Translations under genes and position numbers: made by a program
DNA from: Pecten maximus
Lineage: Eukaryota
Length of the DNA stretch: 64,000 nucleotides
Assembly: GCF_902652985.1 (NCBI RefSeq)
Contig: NC_047029.1
Coordinates: 3,410,001 to 3,474,000 of the forward strand
Reading direction: 5' to 3'
Shown: positions 3,406 to 50,900 of the stretch, in pieces
Position numbering within the stretch: the first letter of the stretch is position 1
How the letters are laid out: the number at the start of each line of letters is the position of its first letter
Notes under the pieces: model-generated
What the model saw: the letters and a program-made list of their open reading frames with translations, nothing else
What the model was told of the DNA's origin: nothing
The model's database searches: none

Positions 3406-6400
3406 ATAAGGGAATCTGTCCCCATAAAGTCCTTCAGCTTTGAAGGTTCTGTTATATTCCTCTGGTATTGATCTTCATTGAACTGTGTCCTTGAATGACG
3501 AGCTTGTAAACTCCCAGGTAACGATAGATTTTGACAATGTCTGGGCCAGAGACACCCTCCTCATAAATGGCTTTGAAGCAATTTAGAAAATATATTAAAG
3601 TAACATACATGTACATAATAATGTATGCACAGTTATGAGTTTCACAAATTAAACTAAATTTAAAGCAATATACCGTTGGGAAAGTGAATTGTTACATCAA
3701 ATTTTGAGATTGGCATGCCAAAATATATTTGTCTATATCATTGTAAGCAATTCAATTACGCATTCAGATATTTCAGTCAATCTAGCTAGCTAGCTCATGC
3801 ATGTATATTGTCCATTTTACTGTGTGATCTTCTGAAATTAACCTGACATTGTTTTTTAATTAAGAGTTAGATGATTCACAATTCTTTTCTTAAACAATCC
3901 TTGAAACGATAAAGCCAGACAGATTATTAAAATGAAAACTACCTTAATTATTTTGTAAATTTCATATGGAAAACCAATGGAAATTAATCGTGGCTTTAAT
4001 TTTCCACTCATGCATTATCTGATCATAGAACAAGAACAAAGGCTGCTTAATTTCCAAAGGAAATTCCTTAAAGATCCATTTTATTTAACGCTGATTGGCT
4101 GTACAGGTAATACATTTAATTGTGGTATGATGGGACTTCTTGAAAAAAGTAGGATCCATTTCAATTGTGTGTTTAAAGACTTAATCAGAACAGCTGCAGC
4201 ACAAGTCTTGTATAGGATACATATGCTTTTAACTATTTCACTTACCTTGCCATTAAATTCAAAGTCATGTGCCGACATATCATTAGGATATTTCTGTCGT
4301 GAAGATGATGCCTGTTCCTAATATCATATAACATAAATGTACATAATTGTTTGCAGATTTGGATGATTTGAAGCATAGAATTTTCACAACCCCCATTAAA
4401 AATTGTCTACTATATATGTCAATTGTGATGTGTATCAGTCTATTTTCATGATGTATTTATTAAAGAATTACGCAGTGCGTTTGATATATCGTCGAAATGT
4501 TATTTATACAAACATATTGTGGATACCTTCAATACTCAATTTTATCTTATTAAGCCAATTAATTATAAATTTAAAAAGTTATTGAGTCAATTCCGTATGC
4601 AAGGACACAGTCTAAATATTGAATCTGGGCGCTACAATAAAATACCTAGAAGTCAAAGAGTTTGCACAGTTTGTGACAAAAATGACGTCGAGGACGAAGT
4701 ACATTTTGTGCTTCTTTGTCCTGCATATTCTGAACTAAGAAAAACATACATCAAAAAATAATTTAATTTTGCTTGTAACAAGCATTTTCATTGGCTCAAA
4801 AAATTATGTTATCATCTCATAACATAAAAAAATAAAAGGAACTACTTTCAGTTATACCGGAAGTTGACTGTGACGTCAGCGGAGTAATCGTTGTTCACGG
4901 GATTTTGTATTTATCGATGTGTTTTTAAATATCTGGAGTAAAATAAACATGTTATACTTAATGAAAATGTTTCTTATCGTTGTTAATTAAATTATAAGGG
5001 TTAACTGTAATATTCTTTTTACATTATTGAGCAATAACACAAAAAACTGGGGTGTACTCTTTTCATAAACCGCTTCGCGATTTATTCAGAGTACACCCCA
5101 GTTTTTTTGTGTTATTGCTCAATAACGTAAAAAAATATTACAGTTATAACCCTTAAGTATTATTATTCTCGTCCAAGTGTTTATAAATTGATAGAATTAT
5201 TTTCCAGTAAAAGTGTTAAAACCTTGAATAGATTGGGTAAATTTTTGTTACATGCCACTGCAGAAAGAAAAACTCTCCTTGTAAGTAACTAAATTAAATG
5301 CGTTTTGGAAATTATGATCACAGTTTTTATATGTAGTGTTCTTGTATATACATTATATATGTATGTAGAAAGTATGTTATTTATATTGAATAGTACATGT
5401 TTAAATTATGTCGTCATACTGTCATGACGTCATAGGCATGCAATACGTAGACGCTGTAATTGTTATGCATCAGTTACAAGTTTTCAAAAGCAATATGTTA
5501 TTCATTATTATGTGTCTAAATGGAGAAATGAAAATGTAAATATTATTAGAAATAATCTTAGTGTTAATGTAAATAATCTTATAGATATTGGGAATAGAAT
5601 TGTTAGTTCACAAAATGATGTTAATGGTGTTATTGATGATTTTTGTAAACTTGTTAATACATGTGTTTTACCTTATTGTGACGTGCGTAAAGTGAGTGCG
5701 AAAAATGACAATATGAATGTTCAACATAGCTCTAAAAGGTCAGATGATAAGCCATGGTTTACATATGAATGTAAGAGAAAATATTTTGACTATAAACATG
5801 CATTGGGAAACTTCAACTGCTCTAAGTCAGATGAAAATTATCGTATCCTTATAGAAAAAAAGACATTGTACAAAAGACTTGAAAACAGGTTGAAAAGACA
5901 ATATAACAGACATGAAGGTAATATGTTAGATCTGATTCGTAAGAATAACCCAAAACAGTTTTATAAATATTTCTCGAAAACTAAAAGTAGGACAATGCAG
6001 TCTAATTTAAACAATGATGATTTTGGCAATGGTGACATGTCAATTACGGCTGGTGAGACAATTTTCGACGAATTAGATTTACAAATCAGTGAGGATGAAG
6101 TGGTTGCTGCAATAAGAAATCTGAAAAGGAGCAAAAGTTGTAGTGAGGATAATATTTTAAATGAATTTTTTATTGATTGTGAGAAATTTGAGTTGCTACC
6201 ATGTATTACAAATGTCTTCAATAATATTTTTCAGTCTGGCTTTTTCCCAGAATCTTGGTCAAAAGGTTGTATAGTTCCAATTTTCAAAAAAGGTGATATT
6301 GATAATCCGAATAATTACAGAGGTTTGACAATAATAAGCTGTATGGGCAAATTATTTACATCCATTCTTAATAAGAGGCTGATGAAATGGGATAAACAGT

Positions 6401-9119
6401 ATAATGTAATAACGGATGCTCAGTTTGGATTTAAACCTGGTTTTTCTACAGTTGATGCTATTTTTGTTCTGCAAACTTTAGTTAACAAAACATTGAAAAA
6501 TAAAAAAAGATTATACTGCTGCTTTATAGATTATAAAAAAGCTTTTGATTTAATTGATAGAAGCCGTTTATGGTCAAAACTTATAAAACAGGGAATTGAT
6601 GGAAAGATGTTAAAAATAATACAATCTTTATATGATAATGTAAAGTCTTGCATCAAACATAATGGAGTATTGTCAGAATACTATAGAAACACGATCGGTT
6701 TATTCAAAGGAGAAATTTTGTCGCCTATTTTGTACAGTTTATATGTAAATGATTGTGAAATGTGTTTTATTAGAGAGAACTGCCAATCAGTGGAAATTGG
6801 TTTGATCAATCTATTTTTAATTATGTATGCGGATGATACCGTTCTGATAGCAGAGTCACCTCAGTCACTCCAAGAAATGTTAAATGCATTGTATCTATAT
6901 AATAATGAATGGAAATTAACTCTTAATGTTGATAAAACTAAAATCATGATATTTAGGAACGGAGGTAGACTGCGTGACAATGAAAAATGGTTTTATAATA
7001 ATGTAGATATAGAAGTAGTTAATGAATTTAATTATCTTGGAATGTTGTTCAATTATAATGGAAAGTTCAAAAAAACTCAAATTCATGTTGCTAACCAAGG
7101 TAGGAAAGCTTACTTTTCCATAAATAGTAAGTTGAAAAGTCACTCATTTAATATTAAGACACAATATTCTGTGTTTGATACATATATAAATAGTATATTA
7201 GGATATGCAAGTGAAATATGGGGGCATCATAAAGCACCAGACGTAGAAAAAGTACATACCATCTTTTGTAAAAGTTTACTTGGAGTTAATAAATCTACAT
7301 GTAATGATTTTCTTTATTTGGAGTTGGGCAGATTCCCATTATATATTATCAGGAAACTAAAAAATTTTAAGTATTGGCTTAAACTGAAAAGTACTTCAAA
7401 TTGTATATTAAAAGCATGTTTGGAACAGAGAATTGAGTCGAATGATGAATGGAAAATGAACTTGATAAAGTAGGCCTTTCTTATCTCTGGCATGATACTG
7501 CAACTGATTGTTATACGTATAGTGTTATAGAAAATAGAATTAAGGATGTGTATCAGCAAGAAATCATTAATAGAATTAATGCTACATCACGAGGTGTAGT
7601 ATATAAACATTTAGTCGATAATTTTTGTTTACAATTTTATCTAAGTAAGCCCATTGATAGTATTTATAAAAAGTGTCTAGCTAAATTAAGACTTTCGTCA
7701 CATAATTTAAATATAGAGTATGGCAGAAAACATAATGTTCCTAGGGCTAACAGATTATGCGATTGTTGTAATTTAGAGGAAATTGAAGACGAGTATCATT
7801 TTTTACTACAATGTCCATTTTACTCTGATCTTCGTCAACAATATATTAAACATTATTATTACAGAAAGCCAAGTGTTTTCAAATTAGTCAAATTATTAAG
7901 TGTGAATAATGTTAAAGAACTAAATAAAACTGGTAAATTTATCCATTTAGCTTTTAGAAAAAGGGCAGAAAAGGTTAATAGTTAAATATTATTTTGTTAA
8001 ACTAATGAGATGGATAAGCTTACAATATTATGTTGAACACTCTCCGACCATGTAACTGTTTTATTGTATACCTATGCATTTCCATGTTGTTATTTTCACT
8101 TATGGGCCGATAGGTCCTTGGAATAAATTGAACTTGAAATATGCTTTTAACTATTTCACTTACCTTGCCATTAAATTCAAAGTCATGTGCCGACATATCA
8201 TTAGGATATTTCTGTCGTGCAGATGATGCCGTTTCCTAATATCATATAACAAAAATGTACATAATTGTTTACAGATTTGGATGATTTGAAGCATAGAATT
8301 TTCACAAACCCATTAAAAATTATCTACTATACAGATTGAGTCAATTGTAATGTGCATCAGTCTATACATAACTTTATAATCAAAGCTATATCAACTGCAC
8401 TGTACCCAAGCAGCAAAGTCAACCTGCTTAAAATACAGATCAAAAATAAACAAATAAAAAAAAATCAAATTGATACAAAGTATACTTGGTTCTTAAATTG
8501 TGAAAAAATTAGGAATTAGAAGTGGGACTGTTAAGCATAGGAACTTAATTGTTTAATTTCAAATGTGCAATATGAAACAAAAACCTATATAAGACTAATT
8601 AATCTAAGGCCTGTGTTATATTAAACAGGTTATCAATTTATCAAATATGAACCAAGATTCTAAGTTTGTCTAGATAAGAAAGGCATAATTTTTAGTTTTT
8701 GTTGGTTTCATACCTGTAGAATATTATCATTCTTCTCTCTTATGGCTTCTGTATGTAAACTTTCTCTGTGCTGCATACCATTCTTCTCAACATTTACACC
8801 GGTGTACTCTATATCTCTTGGGGTAAAGTTTCTTTCAGTCTGTGTTAAACTGCTTAACCCTGTGTTCTGTGTGGAATGTGTATCCATTTGTGGTACATAT
8901 CCACCAGTCTGCGTAGATAACTCCTCATTCTTCATACCAACTGTCTGTGTAGGGTTCCTATTGCTCTGTGTTTCTCTAGAATTCTGTGAAATTATGTTCC
9001 TGTTTGTCAATATTCTCTCATCTTCCATAGTATCCCGACGGGAACTGGCTGGTGCTTCAACTGCAGCCTTCAGCAACTGGCGTTTGTAGGCCTGCTTTGC
9101 ATACCCACCAAAACTCTCC
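3406..9119 (-). CDS. Unidentified spliced gene, partial model, divergent from MINDY4
   Basis: Exon 9119-8714 (ttttcag acceptor, gtatga donor, open frame ESFGGYAKQAYKRQLLKAAVE...NILQ) joins in phase 0 to a 72-nt exon at 8235-8164 and/or its copy at 4317-4246 (AG/GTAAGT). A further probable exon ends at a GTAAGT donor near 3406, and an upstream donor AAG|GTAAGG lies near 9795. Start, end and product are unresolved. Confidence 0.5.
4221..4443. repeat. Left copy of a ~220-bp direct repeat flanking the LINE block (right copy 8139-8365)
   Basis: ATATGCTTTTAACTATTTCACTTACC...ATCAGTCTAT occurs at both places with scattered substitutions. Confidence 0.92.
4444..5290 (+). mobile_element. 3' fragment of a non-LTR retrotransposon ORF2, interrupted by an insertion at ~4760-5156
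   Basis: HSLNIESGRY..RVCTVC..VEDEVHFVLLC zinc-knuckle C-terminus; the frame resumes after 5157 as YYYSRPSVYKLIEL; paralogous to the 7449-7985 ORF. Confidence 0.8.
4760..5156. mobile_element. Non-autonomous element ending in a long palindrome (~4996-5155), possibly Crypton-like
   Basis: Splits the LINE frame at IKK|YYY. Arms of about 65 bp (AAGGGTTA..GGGGTGTACTCT / AGAGTACACCCC..TAACCCTT). The family label is inference. Confidence 0.65.
5512..8138 (+). mobile_element. 5'-truncated non-LTR retrotransposon (RTE/RTEX-like ORF2 reverse transcriptase), frameshifted near 7450
   Basis: RT motifs PIFKKG..NYRG, QFGF, FIDYKKAFD, ILSPILY, YADD, YLG; C-terminal CxxC..HFLLQC in the 7449-7985 frame; 3' end AATAAATTGAACTTGAA abuts the right direct repeat. 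Confidence 0.93.
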
Positions 9120-12900: not shown

Positions 12901-15900
12901 AAGATGCATGTTTGTGTTGTGTGTGTGTTTTGGGAGCTGGCTGCGGTGTGTTCCTGAACTACCAACTTATCTCGTGCTACCTCGCTGAAGCATTACAGTA
13001 CTGCCAAAGACAACCAGCAGAACAACTCACCTATCGTATTATACTGCCTACAGGCAAATCGGTTGTCCTACTCCCAAAAATGATGAGAGCTGTAAGCAGG
13101 AGTAAGCCCTGGGAGAGAAATTCAACAAAATATCCAGTCAAATTAAAGTTTCCATTTCAACTGGTGTGCTACAAGTGGCTATACATAGCAGACAGTAAAA
13201 TGGCTGAAAAATCAAAAATGAAAAAAAAAAAATTCAATAAAGAATTTTTCAACATAGCAGTGAATTCTTACTCATCTGCTACAGTATATTAAAGGAGATA
13301 GTCAGAATAATTGGACTAGGGTAACATATTTGAAGTTCACCTAACTGACCATGAAAATGTATAGAGGTCACTACCCATCCACATTGGTTTTTTTCCAGGA
13401 AGTAATTTAAGACCCTGTGTGTCCTTTCGTCCATGCCATTTAGAGTGATTGATTATATTCCATGTTGATTTTGTAACTTATTTCGCAATTGTAAAATAGA
13501 TAAAATTTATAACTTTGGTTTAACTTTTGTCTCCATGCAGGACAGACGGAGGACCCAGCGTTCGCGTCCTATGTCAGGTGTATCCAGGAAAGGAAGTATT
13601 CCATCCTCATCTTCCACTGACAAGGAATCGTCTTCAGTGATATCAAATAACAAGGAACCTTTGTTAGTGACACCAAAAACTGACCTGGAAAGTATAGATA
13701 CACTGATCTCTAAGCCGATAGAGCACCGTAAATCTATACAAAATGTCTTAAATGTTGATACTCCTGTGAAATCTGGGAAGATGAGCCGTCGTCAGAACTC
13801 TTTTGAGAAGGAGGAGACTCACTATAGTGTTGATAAATCAAGTATCAGTAAAAATTCGTCCTCACGGGATTCACAGCCACAGAGGTAGGTAGAATCACAG
13901 CCACAGAGGTAGGTAGTTCAGTGTATACCATAGGTCATAATTAAACAATTGTTTGACTTTACAAGTTTTCCTCTTCCTTAAAATTTTTTCAACAAAATGA
14001 TTTTATTTTTTTTAGTAGGCCTTCCTCTTTTAAATCTACCTCAACCAAAGTTGGTGATGTGGAGATTGGAGATGTGGATGACCTTGACAATGAAGTTTCA
14101 AACCTTGACCTTGGGCCGAGACTTCCTGTAGGACGACCAATTCAAAACCTTGTGGCTGCTCGGCCTATAACTCTACAGACAGCTGTTGTAAGTCTTGTCA
14201 GCTGTTTTGTAATCTTTTTCAGCAGTTTAAAGATATCAAGACATCCAGACATGGTGTCAGGGCCAGAGGAAACTCAGGCTAGCCCTACACCAGACATGGT
14301 GTTGGGTCCAGAGGAAATTTGGGATACTACAGGGTATCATTTGGCTTTATGCTAAGCATTTCATTCTATGCAGCTGTACAAAATAATTGGCATATATGCA
14401 GGGAAGTAATTTTGCAAAAGACTGGTGCAACTACTACAGAAAAAACAATAACTCTCATATGATTCACAATTTGTTTAAGTCAAAAACAATGATATTTTTA
14501 AATCATATATACATGTATGTGCTTAATGGCCCTAATTAGTGGCTTACCTGGTGTCAATGTCATAATTAACAAAGATAAACAATAAACATGTTTCTGTTTT
14601 ATCTTTGTGTCTTATTTACAGAATCTGAAGACGATCATATTTGGCCATGCCAACCAGAACTTTAATGATGAGTGGCGGTACCAGAGCTTTACTTTCTGTG
14701 ATCTTCCTAGTCTCAAATTCGGCATTGTACAGAAAAAGGTCAGATTTAGATATCTAATGCTTGGTTTCTGGCAATAAGATTGAGATTATATATAATCTTA
14801 CGATATTCTCAATAACCAAATTATATAACATTAACTAATTATAAGATCATTAAGATTCATGACTGTAGTATACATGTATGTAATTTATTATGAACTTCTG
14901 TACAATATATGAATCCTACTGTCACAAAGCTAACATGTGACGGGCCATGGTACTTATAGGGTGGACCATGTGGTGTATTGGCAGCTGTTCAGGCCTGTGT
15001 CCTACGGGAGATGCTGTTTGGTGACACTCCGGTACCATTCAGTAGATTGTAAGTAAATTTAGAATAAGTCAACTGTTTTGTAGATTCTATCACTACTGTA
15101 GTGGATTTGTATCTTTATTGTGTTTCAGTCATGAACAGTTGATGTATTTGTATTGTTTATAGCAGTGACCCCAGTATAGACGAGCGTAGTGGCTGCCTGG
15201 CGACAGCTCTGGCACGAATCTTCTGGAGGGCCGGTGAGAATAAGACAGCAGTTGTAGTCCTGTAAGTGGCGCACACGATACACATATAAATATTGACATA
15301 ATTTTTATTATGTTTATAAGGTTTAAATGTCCACATATGATATTGTTGGATACAGAGTTTTGAAGAAAAATATCATCAGTTCCCTAAGTACTGTCTAAAT
15401 GTGTACTGAAAAATCTAGAAGGTCTATATATGTACAGAAAAATCTTAAATGCCTAAGGCAGTATAGAAAAAACTTAAATGCCTAAAGCCGTACTGTTGAT
15501 TTAATATTTTGCTGTAGAAAATAATTTTTTAATGTTCATTCGGAGTGCCTGTTTCAAGTTTATTTTCTTATATGCTGTTACAGTAGCAAAAAGCTACATT
15601 TTGTTTTTAACAGTACCAGATGATCTTTTGTTACTTTATATCATTTCCTATCAGTGAAAAGCTTATTATAAGTGATAGTGACATGGATTGATTGTCTGAA
15701 TTTAAACTGTATTTTCAGTCCATCATGATGTTTTTGTCTTGCTGTTGATCAGTATTCGACTTCAGTTGTTAAATCTAACTTTCAGTCCTTCAGGAAAACC
15801 TCAGTTCCAGACAGGGAAAGGGAAATTTAAACAAGACGATTTAACAGAAACGGTAAATAAAGTCTCTTGTGTTCATTCCTTCATTAAGTCACTGCATCTT

Positions 15901-18900
15901 AATTCGCTGCCAAGGGAAGACATCAATATCAACCCTGCAAACTCTGCCAAAGTCTGAAATACTTTACACCATTTTACAAGGGTCACCAATTAGGGCTTTT
16001 CCAGTAAAACATCTACCCCACCCCAGGACTCCAGTTTTGTTAGGGATATCCCAGTAAAACATCTACCCCACCCCAGGACTCCAGGTTTGTTAGGGTTATC
16101 CCAGTAAAACATCTACCCCACCCCAGGACTCCAGGTTTGTTAGGGTTATCACAGTAAAACATCTACCTCACCCCAGGACTCCAGGTTTGGTTAAGGGCTT
16201 TCCCAGTAAAACATCTACCCCACCCCAGGACTCCAGGTTTGTTAGGGTTATCCCAGTAAAACATCTACCCCACCCCAGGACTCCAGGTTTGTTAGGGTTA
16301 TCACAGTAAAACATCTACCTCACCCCAGGACTCCAGGTTTGTTAGGGCTATCCCAGTAAAACATCTACCTCACCCCAGGACTCCAGGTTTGGTTAAGGGT
16401 TATCCCAGTAAAACATCTACCCCACCCCAGGACTCCAGGTTTGTTAGGGCTATCCCAGTAAAACATCTACCTCACCCCAGGACTCCAGGTTTGGTTAAGG
16501 GTTATCCCAGTAAAACATCTACCCCACCCCAGGACTCCAGGTTTGTTAGGGTTATCCCAGTAAAACATCTACCCCACCCCAGGACTCCAGGTTTGGTTAA
16601 GGGTTATCCCAGTAAAACATCTACCCCACCCCAGGACTCCAGGTTTGTTTAAGGGTTATCCCAGTAAAACATCTACCCCACCCCAGGACTCCAGGTTTGG
16701 TTAAGGGCTATCCCAGTAAAACATCTACCCCACCCCAGGACTCCAGGTTTGGTTAAGGGCTATCCCAGTAAAACATCTACCCCACCCCAGGACTCCAGGT
16801 TTGTTAAGGGCTATCCCAGTAAAACATCTACCCCACCCCAGGACTCCAGGTTTGTTTAAGGGTTATCCCAGTAAAACATCTACCCCACCCCAGGACTCCA
16901 GGTTTGGTTAAGGGCTATCCCAGTAAAACATCTACCCCACCCCAGACTCCAGGTTTGGTTAAGGGCTATCCCAGTAAAACATCTACCCCACCCCAGGACT
17001 CCAGGTTTGTTAGGGCTATCCCAGTAAACATCTACCCCACCCCAGGACTCCAGGTTTGTTAGGGTTATCCCAGTAAAACATCTACCCCACCCCAGGACTC
17101 CAGGTTTGTTAAGGGCTATCCCAGTAAAACATCTACCCCACCCCAGGACTCCAGGTTTGTTAGGGTTATCCCAGTAAAACATCTACCCCACCCCAGGACT
17201 CCAGGTTTGTTAAGGGCTTTCCCAGTAAAACATCTACCCCACCCCAGGACTCCAGGTTTGTTAAGGGCTATCCCAGTAAAACATCTACCCCACCCCAGGA
17301 CTCCAGGTTTGTTTAAGGGCTATCCCAGTAAAACATCTACCCCACCCCAGGACTCCAGGTTTGGTTAAGGGCTATCCCAGTAAAACATCTACCCCACCCC
17401 AGGACTCCAGGTTTGTTAGGGTTATCCCAGTAAAACATCTACCCCACCCCAGGACTCCAGGTTTGTTAAGGGCTATCCCAGTAAAACATCTACCCCACCC
17501 CAGGACTCCAGGTTTGTTAAGGGCTATCCCAGTAAAACATCTACCCCACCCCAGGACTCCAGGTTTGTTAAGGGCTATCCCAGTAAAACATCTACCCCAC
17601 CCCAGGACTCCAGGTTTGGTTAAGGGTTATCCCAGTAAAACATCTACCCCACCCCAGGACTCCAGGTTTGTTAGGGTTATCCCAGTAAAACATCTACCCC
17701 ACCCCAGGACTCCGGGTTTGGTTAAGGGGTACCCCCTATAGAATTTATTGATTCAGAATAAATTACATAGAAGTAGTAGGAAGGTAATCCAACCATGTAT
17801 AGAGGTGATTTATTGTGTAGTCTTGGGGTCAGGTAGTTATTTCAATAGCCATAAGAAGTTTAGAATGAACCAACAAATTAGACAAAGCTACATGCCTTTA
17901 ATTCATTTCCTTCATTGTTAACTTACAGTTGATGATCAACCACTTTAAAACTCATGCAGAACTGAAGAGTTTTGTCACCCAGAATTTGAGTCAGGCGAGT
18001 ATCAGAATTGATGTGTGTTGTATTTTTGTCAAACTGTGACGAAGGAATGGAAGCAGGACTATTAAAGGTGTTACTTTTTCACTTGAATCCACACCAATGC
18101 TACGACTGTACAATTCAAAACAGTCTGAAAAAGAGATTTGGAATACTTATTTATCAAATCTATTACAAAATTTTGTAAAGTTTAAAAATTGTCTAACATT
18201 TCAAGCATATAAATATAACAATCATGCATTGAAAACTAGAAATAACTCTGCCTGTGTTTTGTGTTGACAGTTTGAGCTGGATGGTACAAGTGGAGTGATT
18301 CTGGCTCTGTACTCATGTATCATGTCCAGATTTATGGATTTGTAAGTATCATCGAATATAGTTCGGTGCTATAAAATGTCAAATACCATCAGAGAATACT
18401 GACAAAATAACGAACTTCTTGAAAGTTATTTAAAGGAAATTTCAAATCTCTATATATCTTTCAGTGTATATCGATAAAGGTTATATAATTATATGGTTTA
18501 ATTTATTGGTTTTAAATCCCAATCCTTTTTCTTGTAATTAACAATTCATCAACTTGAAGTTAGTGTTTACTTATGTAAAGATTATATTTCTTACAGAGTA
18601 AGAAGTGATATGGATGAACCATCAGGTAAACTGATGGGAGCCCATGGATACTGTACCCAGGTAAGTCATATGCACCCAGGCATGTACATGTATTATAAGT
18701 AATGTGTTCCCAGGTACAGGTACAGTAATATGTTCCCATGTACATGTAAGTAATGTGTTCCCAGGTACATTTAAGTAATGTGTTCCCATGTACATGTAAG
18801 TAATGTGTTCCCAGGTACATGTAAGTCATGTGTACCCAGGTACAGTAATATGTTCCCAGGTACATGTAAGTAATGTGTACCCAGGTACATGTAAGTAATG

Positions 18901-21900
18901 TGTTCCCAGGTACATGTAAGTAATGTGTACCCAGGTAAGTAATATGTTCCCAGGTACATGTAAGTAATGTGTTCCCAGGTACATGTAAGTAATGTGTTCC
19001 CAGGTACATGTAAGTAATGTGTACCCAGGTAAGTAATATGTTCCCAGGTACATGTAAGTAATGTGTTCCCAGGTACATGTAAGTAATGTGTTCCCAGGTA
19101 CATGTAAGTAATGTGTTCCCAGGTACATTTAAGTAATATGTTCCCAGGTACATGTAAGTGATATGTTCCCAGGTACATGTAAGTGATGTGTTCCCAGGTA
19201 CATGTAAGTAATGTGTTCCCAGGTACATGTAAGTAATGTGTTCCCAGGTACATGTAAGTGATGTGTTCCCAGGTACATGTAAGTAATGTGTTCCCAGGTA
19301 CCGTACATGTAAGTGATATGTTCCCAGGTACATGTAAGTGATGTGTTCCCAGGTACATGTAAGTAATGTGTTCCCAGGTACATATAAGTAATGTGTTCCC
19401 AGGTACATGTAAGTGATGTGTTCCCAGGTACATATAAGTAATGTGTTCCCAGGTAAGTGATATGTTCCCAGGTACATGTAAGTAATATGTTCCCAGGTAC
19501 ATGTAAGTGATGTGTTCCCAGGTGCATGTAAGTGATGTGTTCCCAGGTACATATAAGTAATGTGTTCCCAGGTAAGTGATATGTTCCCAGGTACATGTAA
19601 GTAATATGTTCCCAGGTACATGTAAGTGATGTGTTCCCAGGTACATGTAAGTAATATGTTCCCAGGTACATGTAAGTAATATGTTCCCAGGTACATGTAA
19701 GTGATGTGTTCCCAGGTACATGTAAGTAATGTGTTCCCAGGTACATGTAAGTAATATGTTCCCAGGTACATGTAAGTAATGTGTTCCCAGGTACATGTAA
19801 GTGATGTGTTCCCAGGTACATGTAAGTAATGTGTTCCCAGGTACATTTAAGTAATGTGTTCCCATGTACATGTAAGTAATGTGTTCCCAGGTACATGTAA
19901 GTCATGTGTACCCAGGTACAGTAATATGTTCCCAGGTACATGTAAGTAATGTGTACCCAGGTACATGTAAGTAATGTGTTCCCAGGTACATGTAAGTAAT
20001 GTGTTCCCAGGTACATGTAAGTAATGTGTTCCCAGGTACATGTAAGTAATGTGTTCCCAGGTACATGTAAGTAATGTGTTCCCAGGTACATGTAAGTAAT
20101 GTGTACCCAGGTAAGTAATATGTTCCCAGGTACATGTAAGTAATGTGTTCCCAGGTACATGTAAGTAATGTGTTCCCAGGTACATGTAAGTAATGTGTAC
20201 CCAGGTTAGTAATATGTTCCCAGGTACATGTAAGTAATGTGTTCCCAGGTACATGTAAGTAATGTGTTCCCAGGTACATTTAAGTAATATGTTCCCAGGT
20301 ACATGTAAGTGATGTGTTCCCAGGTACATGTAAGTAATGTGTTCCCAGGTACATGTAAGTAATGTGTTCCCAGGTACATGTAAGTGATGTGTTCCCAGGT
20401 ACATGTAAGTAATGTGTTCCCAGGTACCGTACATGTAAGTGATATGTTCCCAGGTACATGTAAGTAATGTGTTCCCAGGTACATATAAGTAATGTGTTCC
20501 CAGGTACATGTAAGTGATGTGTTCCCAGGTACATATAAGTAATGTGTTCCCAGGTAAGTGATATGTTCCCAGGTACATGTAAGTAATATGTTCCCAGGTA
20601 CATGTAAGTGATGTGTTCCCAGGTGCATGTAAGTGATGTGTTCCCAGGTACATATAAGTAATGTGTTCCCAGGTAAGTGATATGTTCCCAGGTACATGTA
20701 AGTAATATGTTCCCAGGTACATGTAAGTGATGTGTTCCCAGGTACATGTAAGTAATATGTTCCCAGGTACATGTAAGTAATATGTTCCCAGGTACATGTA
20801 AGTGATGTGTTCCCAGGTACATGTAAGTAATGTGTTCCCAGGTACATGTAAGTAATATGTTCCCAGGTACATGTAAGTAATGTGTTCCCAGGTACATGTA
20901 AGTGATGTGTTCCCAGGTACATGTAAGTAATATGTTCCCAGGTACAAGTAAGTTATATGTTTGGTAGGTTTTGTTTTTATGAAGCAAGTATACATACATG
21001 TATGTTTTGCTTTAGAGTAATGATGTTTTTGATGTACAGGACATGGTGAATCTGATAATGACTGGCAGGGCAGTGTCTAATGTGTTCAATGATGTTGTTG
21101 AGCTGGAATCTGGTGACGGCTCCCCTGGCACCATCCTGAAGGGCCCCAACACCCGCTCCGACACAGGCCTGTTATCTCTCTTTGAGCATTATGGATCCTG
21201 CCAGGTACATTTTATTTAATTATTTTCTTAAACATAACTTTTAAATAGGATTACTGTGAAAAACATGTGAAAAACATGTTAAATAGTCCATGCTTCCCTA
21301 TCTTAAGGTTGTCTTGTACAGATTTTATCTGATTATATGTTGACAGGTGGGGACGTACCTGAAGACACCACGTTTCCCTATCTGGGTGATTTGCAGTGAG
21401 AGCCATTTCAGTGTCCTATTCTCTTTGAATAAAGAGTTGGTCAGTAACTGGAAGGCAGAGCGAAGGTTTGACCTATTCTACTACGACGGCCTGGCCAGAC
21501 AGCAGGAACTTATCAAGCTGACCATTGGTCAGTATATATCAGTACTATGATTATCTGGTCATTAGTTCCCAACCAGTGAAAGCAAGGGGACTATTGGTTT
21601 CCTCTCTGTCCGTCTTGTACGTATGTACAGACATATGAACGTAACGCCAAAGTTTGTCACCACTCTCGTGGCTTCATTCTCTGAGGAATTTTGATGAAAA
21701 TTGTACACAATGATTTATATTAAAGGACCATAATATCTCCGACATGTTCGAGTTTCATGGTTTTGGGGTCCAGTTCACTGTCTATTTATAAGGTGGGAGG
21801 GGCGTTCTGGGACATGTATTGCTTTACCCAATATGCTTGTATTTGTTGGTCGATATCATAGCTGGAATGATCTGTCATCAGTTGATGGTACTTGTACCTC

Positions 21901-43790: not shown

Positions 43791-44975
43791 TAAATTATTG
43801 GTAATTTTAAAAAAAAAATCTTTCTTATGTTGCAGATTACGAATGTATGACAACTGGTTCGTGGCCCACTGTCCTAGATCAAGATAATCTCCATTGTTTC
43901 ACGTTTGACAGGTCAAACTTACAAACAGCTTTACACCGCTCATTTCTTCTTATTTCTGTATGTTTTTCACAAGGACAATCTTTAATGCATTAGAGTCTTC
44001 ATGAAATATGACGTCATGTGATATAGAAAAAAAAAGTTGCACATTGATTAAGAGCCAGGCTGGAAACCTTAACATTCAAAAACATAGGCTGGGAATATCG
44101 ACAGTGGTCAAAGAATATAGGCTGGAATCTTAAACAAGGTTGGAAGGCCTAACCCAGAAACTTGAACACTGATCGAAGGAATAGGCTGGAAATATGGAGA
44201 ATGAACAATTGTGGACGGCTTAGACTGGAAGCTAAAACAATTGTGGACGGCTTAGGCTGGAAGCTTGAACAATAGTCAAAGGCAAATCTTGGGCAGTGGT
44301 CACAAGTCAATCGGGAAACTACATGAGCACCACCAGTGTTCTAAATTATGCCAAATATCTCTAAGGGACCAAGTGTATAGTCGACTTTCCTCGAGCATCA
44401 GACAGTGTTTCATGTAATACTCAGCTATTGTGTTTCTTCTTCTTGGTTATGATGTATGTGAAATTAACAAATAAAATTATCATCATCATCTGTATAAGTC
44501 GTTTATTAACTCATCTAGCCAAAAGGGCTGGTACATGTATATACAGTACTAAAAATTTAAATCCTTACTCTATAGGAAAATGAAAGGATTTGGTCCATAT
44601 TTGGTCTGAAGCATCCTCGTGTGAAGGGTAACCAATTTGTATAAATAATGGATTTCAACCACCAGGGGATGAAGGGGCAAGACCCAAAGGAATATTAGTG
44701 AAAAATAGCCTGCATAATTTATATCATTTAATTCCATAGAGAGATTGTCATATTGTTTAATTCCTTGGAATTAATTTCGAACTAACCCCCCACCCCTCAC
44801 AAACATACACTTACAAATAATGTATTTGTATATTTCTGCTGGACAACACTGGATAATGATGATAGGTCATTACACAAGATGCCTGGAGCATTTATAGATC
44901 CATATACAACGTTTTTTCTGATGAAAAATAAAAGATATCAATTCTCTTTTTTATATTAATTTAATACACAATTTA

Positions 44976-47900
44976 TCATGTACGACTTTTCTTTCTCTCC
45001 AGCATCTGATCTAGGAACTGAGTGTAAGCCTTCTTCTGTGGTCCAGAGGCTGGGATAAAATGGCCTCCAGGATGCTGTAATATCACTTTGTCAGTGTAAC
45101 AGGGCAGAAGTTCTTCACTCATCTCTGTAATACACAATACCATCATTTAATTATAATACTATGGATACAATATGAATATCCCATACTTAGTACAAGATTC
45201 TCCAGATTGTTAAATTTCCAATAAATGTTGTCATGCATAATTTAAAAGATACATTAACTGTACCTTTATATATTATTTTACTAACAAGTTTACATATACA
45301 TCGAAAATCCTGTTCATGTTGACTTCTTGACACATTTTCTGTGACCTTGACTTACCTTTCTGTATGACCTTGTCTGTGTCCCCAAACACATGTAAAGAAG
45401 GCAGAGACACTTTCGTCGAGTAGAGATCCTGATGTGGGGACTGACGACTCTTGAACCCTGCAACCAGGATCACAAAATCGAACTGGAATGGTGAATCTGT
45501 AAGAAAGAATTGTAAAGTAAATAAACCATATCACAATATTCAATACCATCCTTAATGACGTATTGATTGGACTTTTAACAGAAATAGAAACAACCATCAC
45601 ACTAAGGGACTATCCCCAAAAAAATATATATCCAATATGACTTACTAAAAACAAGTATGTATGGTGGGTGAATGAGAAAATTTGGCTTACTATATGGTAC
45701 TGTTTGAATTTAATGACTTCTATTGGTGGTCACTTTTTGATGAACTTGGGAGTCATACAGCTGGGTAGATATTTTACTGGAATAGCCCTAACCTATACAG
45801 TACTACAAAATTCTAACTTCTGCTCCAGGGGTTTTGTATCAACTTTCTTACAGTAGATAAAAAGTTACTTACCTGAAGGGTTTTGCTCCCTCAGAGCACA
45901 GATCAGGGACAGAAAAGCTGCTCCCTGACTAAAGGCCAGCACACCATCAAATGGACCCTGTAAAAAACAGAGTGGACTTCAAAGTACATGTATAAATCCT
46001 GTCCTAATTATCTGTAATATGAAGAATCTTGACCTTCAGTCTAAAAGGTGTTCTAACACTACTCCATAGTACGGTGAATTTATAGTCATTAGAATATCAT
46101 GTTCATAACCTTTGTGCAACTTTTACATTTTCCAGTGACTCCTAGTTAAGTTTACCTGTTATTTAATGGCATGGGCTACCTGGTCCAATGACTCCTAATT
46201 AAGTTTACCTGTTCTTTAATGGCCTGGGGTACCTGGTCCAATGACTCCTAATTAAATACCCATTCCTTAGTCGCCTGTGTTACCACGTCCAGTGACTCCA
46301 AATTAAATTTACCTGTTCTTTATAAGCCTGTGCATGTTACCACATCCATGACTCCTAATTAAATTGACCTCTTTAATGGCCTGGGCTACCTCATCAAGTG
46401 ATTCCTAGTTAAGTTTACCTGTTCTTAAATGGCCTAAATTACCTGGTCCAGTGATTCCTAGTTAATATTACCTGTTCTTTAATGGCCTGTGCTACCTGGT
46501 CCAGTGACTCCTAGTTAAGTTTACCTGTTCTTTAATGGCCTGGGCTACCTGGTCCAGTGACTCCTAGTTAAGTTTACCTGTTCTTTAATGGCCTAAATTA
46601 CCTGGTCCAGTGACTCCTAGTTAAGTTTACCTGTTCTTTAATGGCCTAAATTACCTCGTCCAGTGACTCCTAGTTAAGTTTACCTGTTCTTTTATAGCCT
46701 GTGCCACCACATCCAGTGACTCCTTGTAACCTTTACAACAGTCTGTATAGTCCTGAGCCATGTAATAATCATCCTTGCGTGAAAACCACCATCCCATCTG
46801 GTCAGCTAAACGAGAAACAAATATCAAGACTACAGCTCATAAACATCTGAGTTGCTTTAATACTGTCCTCATCTACCGAGTCTATCGATTTTGTATTGGT
46901 TATTTAAACATGCAACCATAAAAGTTCATGTTTCATAGCCTAGATTTCAAACCAAGTGGCCCAGAGGGATATTTCAGTAACTCAGAATCATTTCTATCAT
47001 TTTTGCTGCATTTTCCAACAATGATTTAATCCATATAGGGACCAAATCCTTTCACTCTTTAAGAAGAAGGAATTTAGAAGTTATTTTTGTTTTTGTTTGC
47101 AACATTTCCCCATAGGTCCCCTCTCTCGGGTCCCTAGGGACCCATAACCTCCATTTATACAACATTAAATCTCCTTTGCCTAATAATGCACCAACTACCA
47201 AATTTCATCACAATCCATTTAATCGTTCAGCACAATTAGTGGAGATTTAAAGGATTTATCTCAATTTCCCCAATTTGGGCCCCCAGGTCCCAAGAGAGCT
47301 ACATCCTCTGTATATACATGTACAAATGTACAACATTAGCTCTCCCCTCTCCCATAATGCTCAAGACCAAATTTTTTAAAAATCTAATCAGTCATTCAGG
47401 AATACCCAGGTAGTAGGGATTTAAAAGATTTACCTCAATTAACCAATAAGGCCCCCTCTCTCTGGCCTCAAAGGACCCACACCTCTGTTCATACAACATT
47501 ACATCTCCTTTGCCCAATAATGCTCCAGAACAATTTATATCAAAATCCATTCTTGTAAGATATTCTGTACACCTGTGTATTCTGTACACCTGTTTATTCT
47601 GTGCACCTGTGTATATATTCTGTACACCTGTGTATTCTGTACACCTGTGTATTCTGTACACCTGTTTATTCTGTACACCTGTGTATTCTGTACACCTGTT
47701 TATTCTGTACACCTGTGTATTATGTACACCTGATTCTGCACACCTGTGTATTCTTTACACCTGTTTATTCTGTACACTTGTTTATTCTGTATACCTGTGT
47801 ATTCTGTACACAATACACACGCTTATTCTATACACCTGTGCATTCTGTACACAATACACACTTATTCTATACACTTGTGCATTCTGTACACTTGTTTATT

Positions 47901-50900
47901 CTGTATACCTGTGTATTCTGTACACAATACACACTTATTCTATACACTTGTGCATTCTGTACACAATACACACACTTATTCTGTACACCTGTTTATCTGC
48001 ACACGTATGTATTCCCTACACCTGTATTTGACACACAATTTGTTTCAGAATACTTACCTTGTTTTTCAGGTGTGTCAGTGGCCGTGTCAGCAGACTTATC
48101 TCCCTCCTCTCCTGGCAATGGAGGGACACGATTGGGGGCTGTCACAAACACTGGATAAAACATGACTCTGAGTGTTAACACATGATAAAACATGACTCGG
48201 TGTTAACACACGATATAACACAGTTTTAGTCCTAAACACAACATACTGAAACAGTAGGGATCTGGTGCTTATTTACCAGAATATTAAATTTACCAACTTG
48301 AAAGTATTTATAGGATAAGCTGCATTTTACTCAATATTTTTCCTATGCATTTTGGTTTTTATTTTGGGGGGGGGGGGGGGGGGGATAAGGCTAAAATACA
48401 TTGGGAATCAGGTTGTTTTGCACCTCCCGTTATAAACTAAAACACTACAATGGTCAAATCTTATATCCAATGTATATAACAGAAGCATATTATGTAATCA
48501 TTGTCAAAGTGTAAGTCACACCTGATGCTACCAAGTTAATTAAGGACAAAATTTCAAAACAAATGAAAGTTTGTTTACAGACCTTTGGATAATTAAACTA
48601 TAAATTGTACCTTAAAACGATATAATGGTACATTGTAAGTTGTTCTTAAAATTGATTAAGAATATTTCTGAACTTACATGCATGAATTATGAAGAAGATT
48701 ACTCAAATTTTAATAGACATTCTCCTTCCTACTAGAAATGTTTGACAAGAGTGCCGGTGACAGATAAAACATCTTCACATACCAAGCTGACAGCAAAGGA
48801 GTATTTCTTTTTAATCCTAGTCAGAATACAACCTTACCTAACTCTGCTCGACTTTTAATGATTTTCCGGAATGCGCCTGTTCTCTCCCGAAATGTCTGTG
48901 CATTTTGTCTGGAAAAAAAAGACACATGTTTGATACAAGTATGAGAGTATAATTCACTGCTATAATAGGCAGGACAACTTGACTTTGAAAAGAAAAATAG
49001 CTGACAATCCAACATCAGAGTTATAAGAGTTGTTTCCCTTGAAGTATGAAGGCAATGTCATACATCTAAAGCTATGAATGTGTAAATGTTGAAAAGGAAT
49101 AAAATATTAAATTTCATTATCAGCATTTTACAGGATTATAATTTATTAATGCTCATTTTATTTATATTTTAAATAAAATATTCAACAGAGCCCGTAATGC
49201 ACAGCTCTCCAAAACTGTTACACTATACACAGTGTGTGAACTCTAATTAAAAATATCACTTAAAGGAACCATGAAATAAAACAGTCATACCAGTTTGAAT
49301 TAATGACACCTTCAAGGAGCTTTTTTCATATCATTAATAAAAAGTCATTCAAGGGAAATAACTCAAACACAGATTAGAATGATAGCATGTACCCTTGACT
49401 TCACGAATCATAATAACATAATATATGTTAGGGGGTAACTCTACAGTTGCTACAAACCGTGGCACTTCAGGTGGTCAGTTAATACGACAAGGGAAACAAC
49501 TCTAACACAGATCATAGGTCCTTCTTACTGTACATAACTTAGCATGTATCCTTAACTAAAATATTTGACAAATCACCGTTATAATGTGTAAGGGAGGTTA
49601 TACTCTAATACAGATCATAACTTTTAATCAATACTGTACATTTTGCTTATTTTACAAACAGTTGTATTTAAAATAATAAGTATGTTTTACCTGTATCCAT
49701 GGAGACAGAGAATCTGTAAACAAGAAAACACAGAATAGTAATTTCATCAAATACATGTGCATGGATAAACAGAGAATTAAACAAATTGATGGATACATTT
49801 GTATAAACGAACTGTTAGGTAATGCTATAGATATAACACATTATCATCTTTACACAACAAGTTAATAAAAGTGGTTATAATTTGCAGTCATAAAGATCAG
49901 AAATGACATTTGAACAACCAACTTAATAAACTGAGCAATTGATCACTTAAGTTACGAGGAGATCCCAGATCGTGGGATCTTATATCCCCGGGTCGAGTGA
50001 GTGGTACATTTTCAATGGAATTCAATGGTAAAAGCACATAGGTACATTTTCAATGGAATTCCATGGTAAAAGCATGCATTTTTGCAGTACCTGCAAAATA
50101 TTAATGTATGATATTTAAAAGTTTTATGTAACTTTTCTTCAATGTTTTTTCTCTTTCTTCTGAATTATCTGGTTTGTTGATGTGATGATATTATAGACAA
50201 AATATTACAAAAGTTTTGTTCTTCTATTGTGAACCCCGTAACTCAACACACACACCTTGACAGAGTGAATGAAAGAAGATATAAACAAAATATGACAGGG
50301 AAAAAGACACTAACTTGCTGTCCGTGCTAACAGACTGAGTGACAGAAGAACCAAGAAACGAAATTCAGAAAGTACTGACAATGACTTCCCATGTAAAGTT
50401 TTATATACAGCTATATCATAGCAACAAAGACATCTCAATGCGGTTCATGAATTATAAGGCGTGCACGTAGATATTGGGCCTTTAGCAACCAGCCAATGTC
50501 TTTCTCAACTCCCTTAAGGAGCTTACAGATGGAGCTGCCATTTTTGGTGTTAACAGCTAGCTTACACCAACATTTCTTGCACTGCCCTACCATGAAGTTA
50601 CATATCATGCATACTAAAGTATCTTCTTCAAGGATACAACTCGGTGCACGTGCTGGGACATAAACTATAGAGACCCTTCGGTGACGTACCCTGCGTCCAA
50701 CCACTGGACTATACCTTGCATTGCCTCCATGAAGGCCCCATGTCAGTCATTTTACTTTTCTGATAAGTCCAAAAATAAATCCTAGACTTTTAAAGTGAAA
50801 CCTATACATACTTATGGGATATGACCTTGGCCTTAAGGTAAAAGTACTTCTCCAAAAAAAAGCAATAACAGACTCGTCATGCCAGCAAACTCAGCAAAAT

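Follow-up and report, generated by a model that had tools for sequence, protein, structure and literature searches.

Does a tandem repeat that starts in the end of an exon and continues into the following intron give its gene further exons, further donors or neither, and does it mark a mutational process at work on exon-intron boundaries? OVCA2 intron 5 of the scallop Pecten maximus raises this question within the window (the whole 64,000-nucleotide stretch of contig NC_047029.1 that was analysed), where an earlier note, made from the sequence alone, had described a row of AG/GT-bounded, in-frame pseudo-exons. The gene and exon named in it were right: exon 5 translates as ADQMGWWF...VVAQAIKEQ, with 40 aa 100% identical to the Pecten maximus OVCA2-like protein P0001 (exact match to residues 74-114), and the product belongs to the OVCA2/FSH1 family (Pfam PF03959). 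Exact mapping of P0001 runs the coding exons from 60178 to 44979 and makes 46805-46684 (minus strand) the fifth of eight; exon 1 lies at 60178-60146, and an ATG at ~50541 was rejected as the start on this mapping. A search of the scallop's own genome found one OVCA2 locus, and the RefSeq isoforms X1 and X2 encode the same 238-aa protein. Alleles of the OVCA2 3' UTR, with a 10-nt deletion (44839) and a 1-nt deletion (44910), differ among the RNA runs.

46684..46805, minus strand: OVCA2 coding exon 5, matched by P0001 and by RNA contigs in 4/4 runs; the final 39 nt form unit 0 of the array
46670..46683, minus strand: authentic donor CAG/GTAAAC with the 14-nt intron part of unit 0; 9.3 bits, 61st percentile, used in the observed joint
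45873..45957, minus strand: OVCA2 exon 6, carrying the AFSQG motif; acceptor 12.7 bits, 95th percentile

TRF delimits the array at 46131-46724, with a period of 53 bp, 11.2 copies and 83% matches, and together with an alignment of the units it bears out the composition proposed earlier: unit 0 (minus strand) joins the last 39 nt (13 codons) of exon 5 to 14 nt of intron, the first letters of this spacer being GT and the last AG, and the junction unit is repeated as ten further units (U1-U10) inside the intron.

46131..46724, minus strand: 53-bp minisatellite of 11.2 units (TRF), the first crossing the exon 5 donor
46564..46669, minus strand: U1 and U2, 98% identical, with in-frame TAG; extra donor-like sites at 46654 and 46601
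46525..46563, minus strand: exon-like part of U3, open over 39 nt and bounded by AG and GT; acceptor -2.5 bits, 0.2nd percentile
46472..46510, minus strand: exon-like part of U4, open over 39 nt; acceptor -2.5 bits
46405..46457, minus strand: U5, with two in-frame stops; 94-96% identical to U1/U2
46248..46404, minus strand: U6-U8, the most diverged units, with indels; U6 open over 36 nt, U7 with a stop, U8 without the AG
46142..46247, minus strand: U9, open over 39 nt, acceptor +0.6 bits, and U10, with an in-frame TAA

The OVCA2 units are 71-98% alike overall and fall into families (read from unit identities in one haplotype), U1, U2 and U5 being 94-98% alike and U3, U4, U9 and U10 89-94% alike. 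Unit 0, in the exon, is 77-87% identical to the others; the array units are not copies of the present-day end of exon 5, and U6-U8, two of which (U7 and U8) retain the exon's GTG codon, are older units. The exon and the array consensus differ at six codons, five of them synonymously, a bias best read as drift of the exon at silent sites. We infer that a short tandem duplication over the junction gave rise to the array, and the unit families suggest that it then grew by slippage or unequal exchange. Searching the genome with the array returned at least one match, namely the array itself, and blastn found no relative of it in 1.88 Mb of other scallop stretches.

The description of the array as a row of pseudo-exons holds for part of it. 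Four of the ten intronic units are open, in phase 0 and bounded by AG and GT (U3 from 46563, U4 from 46510, U6 from 46404 and U9 from 46247), among them the stop-free 39-nt unit at 46563-46525 that had been singled out, but five contain an in-frame stop (U1, U2, U5, U7 and U10), including the TAG correctly reported in the two units nearest the real exon, and U8 has lost its AG. It is nonetheless highly improbable that the distal units function as cassette or poison exons, which would insert 13-residue helices ahead of the strand with the catalytic serine, or else a stop. The open units have intact donors, and every exon-like part is divisible by 3 in length, but the unit AGs have no pyrimidine tract and score from -2.7 to +0.6 bits (U8 -10.5), at or below the 0.3rd percentile of the 583 acceptors inferred for the scallop; real acceptors have a median of 8.6 bits and that of exon 6 reaches 12.7 bits. 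These scores come from matrices trained on 519 confident dynein introns and 23 window introns (four of the latter seed entries were one base off). The comparison set consists of 583 introns inferred from 1.4 Mb of scallop sequence that holds 14 dynein heavy-chain genes, with a profile built from 41 long relatives among the 150 listed; it was partly chosen by the same score, and the percentiles somewhat flatter real sites. With exon 4 ending in phase 1, no unit can stand in for exon 5 without a shift of frame, no isoform with such an exon appears among the RefSeq and bivalve proteins found, and the OVCA2 orthologue proteins of four other bivalves show no insert at the exon 5/6 position.

The AG in front of each unit may have a simpler source. 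In 378 of the 583 inferred exon ends, the last 47 nt contain an in-frame AG, so a copied exon end can be expected to give in-frame units bounded by AG and GT. The exon itself reads TTACAAG ahead of the unit start and the 14-nt spacer ends in TTAACTAG, which suggests that the 'acceptor' AG may be the exon's own lysine codon, or microhomology at the breakpoint. Selection for coding in the units was rejected, as the changes in aligned units that are absent from the exon comprise four synonymous, seven non-synonymous and three stop codon variants, against an expectation of 25:84:8 for single changes, with no sign of constraint. One stop variant is common to U1, U2 and U5, and its spread through the array argues against coding use.

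The donors present a different picture. The authentic donor scores 9.3 bits and the copied donors score equally well: eight of the ten end-of-unit donors lie at 8.6-10.9 bits, three inner sites at 8.6-9.9 bits, and seven copies are, by this simple matrix, as strong as or stronger than the authentic site. With weak acceptors and strong copied donors, the array is a row of donors and not of usable exons. The earlier suggestion that units act as alternative donors is therefore tenable at a low level of use, but all 17 alternative donors tested in silico give a premature stop 171-721 nt before the last junction, and under the usual 50-nt rule such transcripts are predicted targets of nonsense-mediated decay (NMD).

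We compared RNA over 44800-47500 in 4 of the 21 listed runs, all of them assembled contigs whose run types are guesses; two (X2 and X17) agree in size and in their longest record, which makes them probably a single data set and leaves at most three independent. Each of the four runs contains one contig that joins OVCA2 exons 5-6-7-8, and the sole joint across intron 5 is 46684->45957 (4/4 runs, in contigs from which minor forms could be missing). Contig depth is zero at 46074-46619 in all four, in assemblies that drop rare variants. At contig depth, use of the array junctions proposed earlier thus finds no counterpart, the contigs showing the normal joint alone. As contigs drop rare variants and NMD lowers the products, these data show the main form only.

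It follows that leaky donors would be hard to see, since products carrying premature stops would be missed by steady-state contigs. If 46654, 46630 and 46601 were used in a few percent of transcripts, which would then enter NMD, the copy number of the array could tune the level of OVCA2 mRNA or the skipping of neighbouring exons, as at ABCA7. The copied donors (8.6-10.9 bits against 9.3) would allow it and precedents exist in the accounts available to us, with two proximal pseudo-sites used in IFI6 and CBS (PMC1557585) and, in ABCA7, retention of one unit at about 2% and exon skipping that depends on array length (PMC5954066). We nevertheless think it unlikely, as no contig with an extension occurs in 4/4 runs and, in the F7 minigenes as described in PMC1557585, unit number did not alter donor choice. 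The array is a minisatellite whose first unit crosses the exon 5 donor, and its ten intronic copies are quite probably silent, neutrally decaying by-products. Such an array could survive because the exon-adjacent donor wins (shown in human F7, and presumed for the scallop), because the copied AGs, as scored here, are without a pyrimidine tract, and because a slip to a downstream donor would introduce a stop into the mRNA and, by prediction, expose it to removal by NMD, a putative buffer.

The OVCA2 array had been counted as the third junction-seeded repeat in the window. The recurrence stands, but the count was too low, as five splice sites are duplicated among the 23 coding introns of MINDY4 (P0008, 17 exons) and OVCA2: four donors (13885, 14188, 18661 and 46683) and one acceptor, that of OVCA2 exon 4 (48147-48220).

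13871..13916, plus strand: 24-bp duplication across MINDY4 donor 13885 (TRF, protein mapping)
14186..14228, plus strand: 21-bp duplication at MINDY4 donor 14188, with only 2 exon bases inside the TRF row
18652..20961, plus strand: MINDY4 array of 19/25-bp units x 92 from donor 18661 (TRF start 18696)
48147..48220, minus strand: 30-bp x 2.5 repeat at the OVCA2 exon 4 acceptor, ending 4 nt inside the exon

In the 2.3-kb MINDY4 array (18652-20961; the exon ends at 18660), a 19-bp junction unit grew to 25 bp through a 6-bp insert immediately after the copied end of the exon, and both unit types are interleaved. Another MINDY4 intron holds a 52-bp x 34 array (15992-17735, plus strand) with a lone relative in OVCA2 intron 6 (45763-45791, minus strand; 23 array matches within 3 mismatches), and since many unrelated RNA contigs pile up on 45710-45800, this 52-bp sequence is read as a dispersed element. 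MINDY4 also has a GC donor, CAG/GCGAGT, at 17995 (plus strand, exact protein mapping). Elsewhere in the window, a 1022-aa open frame at 31082-34150 (minus strand), in which PF00078 marks a reverse transcriptase domain, is flanked by a 167-bp direct repeat (30658-30824 and 34081-34247), the two copies of which are 100% identical, which leads us to read it as a young retroelement, and a 681-aa frame at 5428-7473 (plus strand), also with PF00078, is LINE-like.

To put a rate on the recurrence, we took a census of TRF arrays with a period of at least 10 that cover at least 4 exon and at least 6 intron bases, in two gene families (dynein and myosin) with boundaries taken from homology, not from RNA; the sample comprised 14 of 18 dynein loci and excluded one myosin locus, C9:3.74-3.79 Mb. 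Within the window, 13885, 46683 and the exon 4 acceptor alone fall under this rule, and as 14188 and 18661 fail it, the census undercounts. The dynein genes yielded 27/583 donors and 15/583 acceptors, each inspected by eye. Among the 151 introns of the myosin heads (19 loci; boundaries less firmly inferred, no model gap in 99 introns), there were six donors and one acceptor, one of the donors (mC2b, an array misread as 160 'exon' bases) being false and dropped by eye; it was removed from the observed counts of both nulls and kept in the denominator of 734. Combined, 32 donors (4.4%) and 16 acceptors (2.2%) are spanned in 734 introns, and with at least 8 exon bases the counts are 28 donors and 9 acceptors (P 0.003). 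Junction arrays occur in 48/734 introns (6.5%, 95% interval 5.0-8.6, which is too narrow for the whole genome given two families, homology boundaries and differences between genes), and 18 of the 33 genes sampled have at least one.

Strong copies of the splice site are retained in 22/27 donor and 13/15 acceptor arrays of the dynein genes. If the gene models are right, splicing at either end therefore uses the exon-adjacent site, a pattern more in line with exon definition than with a scan in one direction; a rule by which acceptor copies become inactivated was rejected on the same 13/15. Some of these arrays are large. In the C3 dynein (9.35-9.45 Mb, L074-L083), a donor-seeded array fills 6968 of the 6991 nt of an intron with ~155 strong donor copies, and on C14, two dynein introns of 1340 and 1538 nt also consist almost entirely of array. 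A C19 dynein (L094-L103) carries at a donor a 27-bp x 18 array whose unit length is a multiple of 3, whose read-through is open over 513 nt and in which one pseudo-acceptor reaches 13.0 bits; on these features, it is a better candidate than OVCA2 for a leaky or coding mirage. Dynein exon matches of equal score at C13 6.83 Mb and on the small contig C29 suggest an unpurged haplotype copy, and hence a possible second allele for the arrays there.

A recurring mutational process at exon-intron boundaries had been proposed from the window. The recurrence at exon ends is confirmed (48/734 introns), but a process that targets the junction is not supported. With every array collapsed into a single unit and under uniform placement of the seeds, the expectation was 18.0 per end, and the 32 donors represent a 1.8-fold excess (P 0.002), with no excess at acceptors; when each seed was kept in its own intron, 22.6 were expected and the excess at donors was 1.4-fold (P 0.04). 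The adjacent intron is a sharper control than the uniform null, and over this local control the excess disappears: first units cover the donor in 27/733 introns, +20 in 24/730, +40 in 28/728 and +60 in 24/726 (P 0.89), so boundary-aimed mutation is not supported, and the first-unit profile of 733 introns shows no peak on the junction between the donor and +250, where cover falls to 8/506 (P 0.02 against +40). Last units cover the acceptor in 9/733 introns, -20 in 22/730 and -40 in 21/728 (P 0.02 and 0.03, uncorrected), with 18 at -60. In introns of at least 340 collapsed bases, the junction count (5/316) is below the near-intron count (9-12/316). Relatives elsewhere in the sample were found for 69 of 286 arrays; with those 69 removed, the dynein donor excess stays (20 against 9.7) and the difference between donors and acceptors is non-significant (20 against 14, P 0.39; 16 against 8, P 0.15).

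These counts bear on a process aimed at junctions that would seed arrays there, for example through repair that uses splicing intermediates as templates, or through stalling at splice sites. In its favour are the donor excess over both nulls, the 18/33 genes with a junction array and the four duplicated donors in the window, but the parity between the donor and the following 60 bases and the dip at acceptors argue against it, and the excess is exon-proximal, which slower turnover of exon-adjacent sequence can yield. We hold it to be rather doubtful, with the reservation that a true excess could be hidden behind the parity at the junction if intronic arrays are drawn towards exons by deletions. 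Repeats concentrate near exons; across donors they are tolerated, across acceptors there are fewer of them, and selective filtering of exon-proximal repeats explains the profile best. The genome would thus make many minisatellites near exons, of which donor-spanning ones are tolerated and acceptor-spanning ones likely partly purged. We infer selection as the cause of the donor/acceptor asymmetry; purging at acceptors is partial at best, since 13/15 acceptor arrays keep strong upstream AGs.

The OVCA2 locus itself is ordinary, likely a harmless and common by-product of a known repeat type, and what is new here is the census count of minisatellites that span splice sites. Mirages, as such arrays are called, are probably genome-wide in the scallop, at ~1 in 15 introns (1,000/15,000), and donor-biased. 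There is a small chance that the fuller statement holds, in which genome-wide donor-biased mirages leak to an extent set by copy number, thousands of polymorphic arrays tune mRNA via NMD, and the donor bias exists because selection filters the two ends differently. If a copy-number-dependent leak were true, it would offer a natural test of how the spliceosome chooses among identical sites. If ~6% of introns carry arrays, many of them holding tens of identical donors or acceptors, the genome and deep RNA data would test whether the exon-nearest site always wins, and would allow tests at scale of NMD buffering and of the creation of introns and exons by mirages. The recurrence rate merits a proper annotated census, and is a warning for bivalve annotation and read mapping.

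In the accounts available to us, minisatellites across splice sites have so far been described in a few human and amphioxus genes; our literature searches, which did not extend to subscription papers, yielded neither an earlier census nor a mollusc report. The OVCA2 array has the exon-intron boundary inside a unit of minisatellite size, keeps the splice signal in its copies and, in the contigs, is spliced at the authentic site; it is a mirage, as in amphioxus and in human F7 and ABCA7. In amphioxus, mirages are described for Adh3, the globins BflGb6 and BflGb9, troponin C and PGBD5 (PMC3087553, PMC3902484; the original paper is Canestro 2002, cited via PMC3087553), and according to the same accounts they do not disturb splicing. 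As described there, a minisatellite duplicates the boundary, many units keep AG/GT and splicing is normal, as in the OVCA2 contigs, and unit subfamilies occur in both, in amphioxus from concerted evolution; units are of 10-160 bp there and both donor and acceptor ends occur. The scallop differs in being a mollusc and not a cephalochordate, in the count given here (48/734) and in a donor bias that is absent from the amphioxus accounts available. PMC10078293 and PMC12783039, in the portions available, hold nothing specific to add.

Among human genes, F7 intron 7 contains a 37-bp VNTR, with kindred cases in IFI6 (6-16), CBS, LMNB2 and PDGF. According to the account in PMC1557585, splicing in F7, LMNB2 and PDGF is confined to the first donor, and IFI6 and CBS use two more. 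The first unit crosses the boundary and identical pseudo-donors follow downstream in F7, as described, much as in OVCA2, but the F7 unit holds 4 exon bases and that of OVCA2 39, the OVCA2 units differ from the F7 group in being 71-98% alike with stops in half of them, and the use of two copies reported for IFI6 and CBS is absent from the OVCA2 RNA contigs. The 25-bp VNTR in ABCA7 intron 18 likewise repeats the donor in each unit, and use of the next donor leads to a premature stop (through a frameshift in ABCA7); in the available account (PMC5954066), one-unit retention of ~2% and length-dependent exon skipping are documented for that gene, and neither is for OVCA2 in contig RNA. Human segmental duplications, finally, contain internal tandem repeats at exon-intron boundaries (27 intron changes), with minisatellites of ~30 bp that lengthen introns (PMC2812944, as far as available); those are recent paralogues, whereas OVCA2 is single-copy and conserved, and the scallop rate is counted over ordinary introns.
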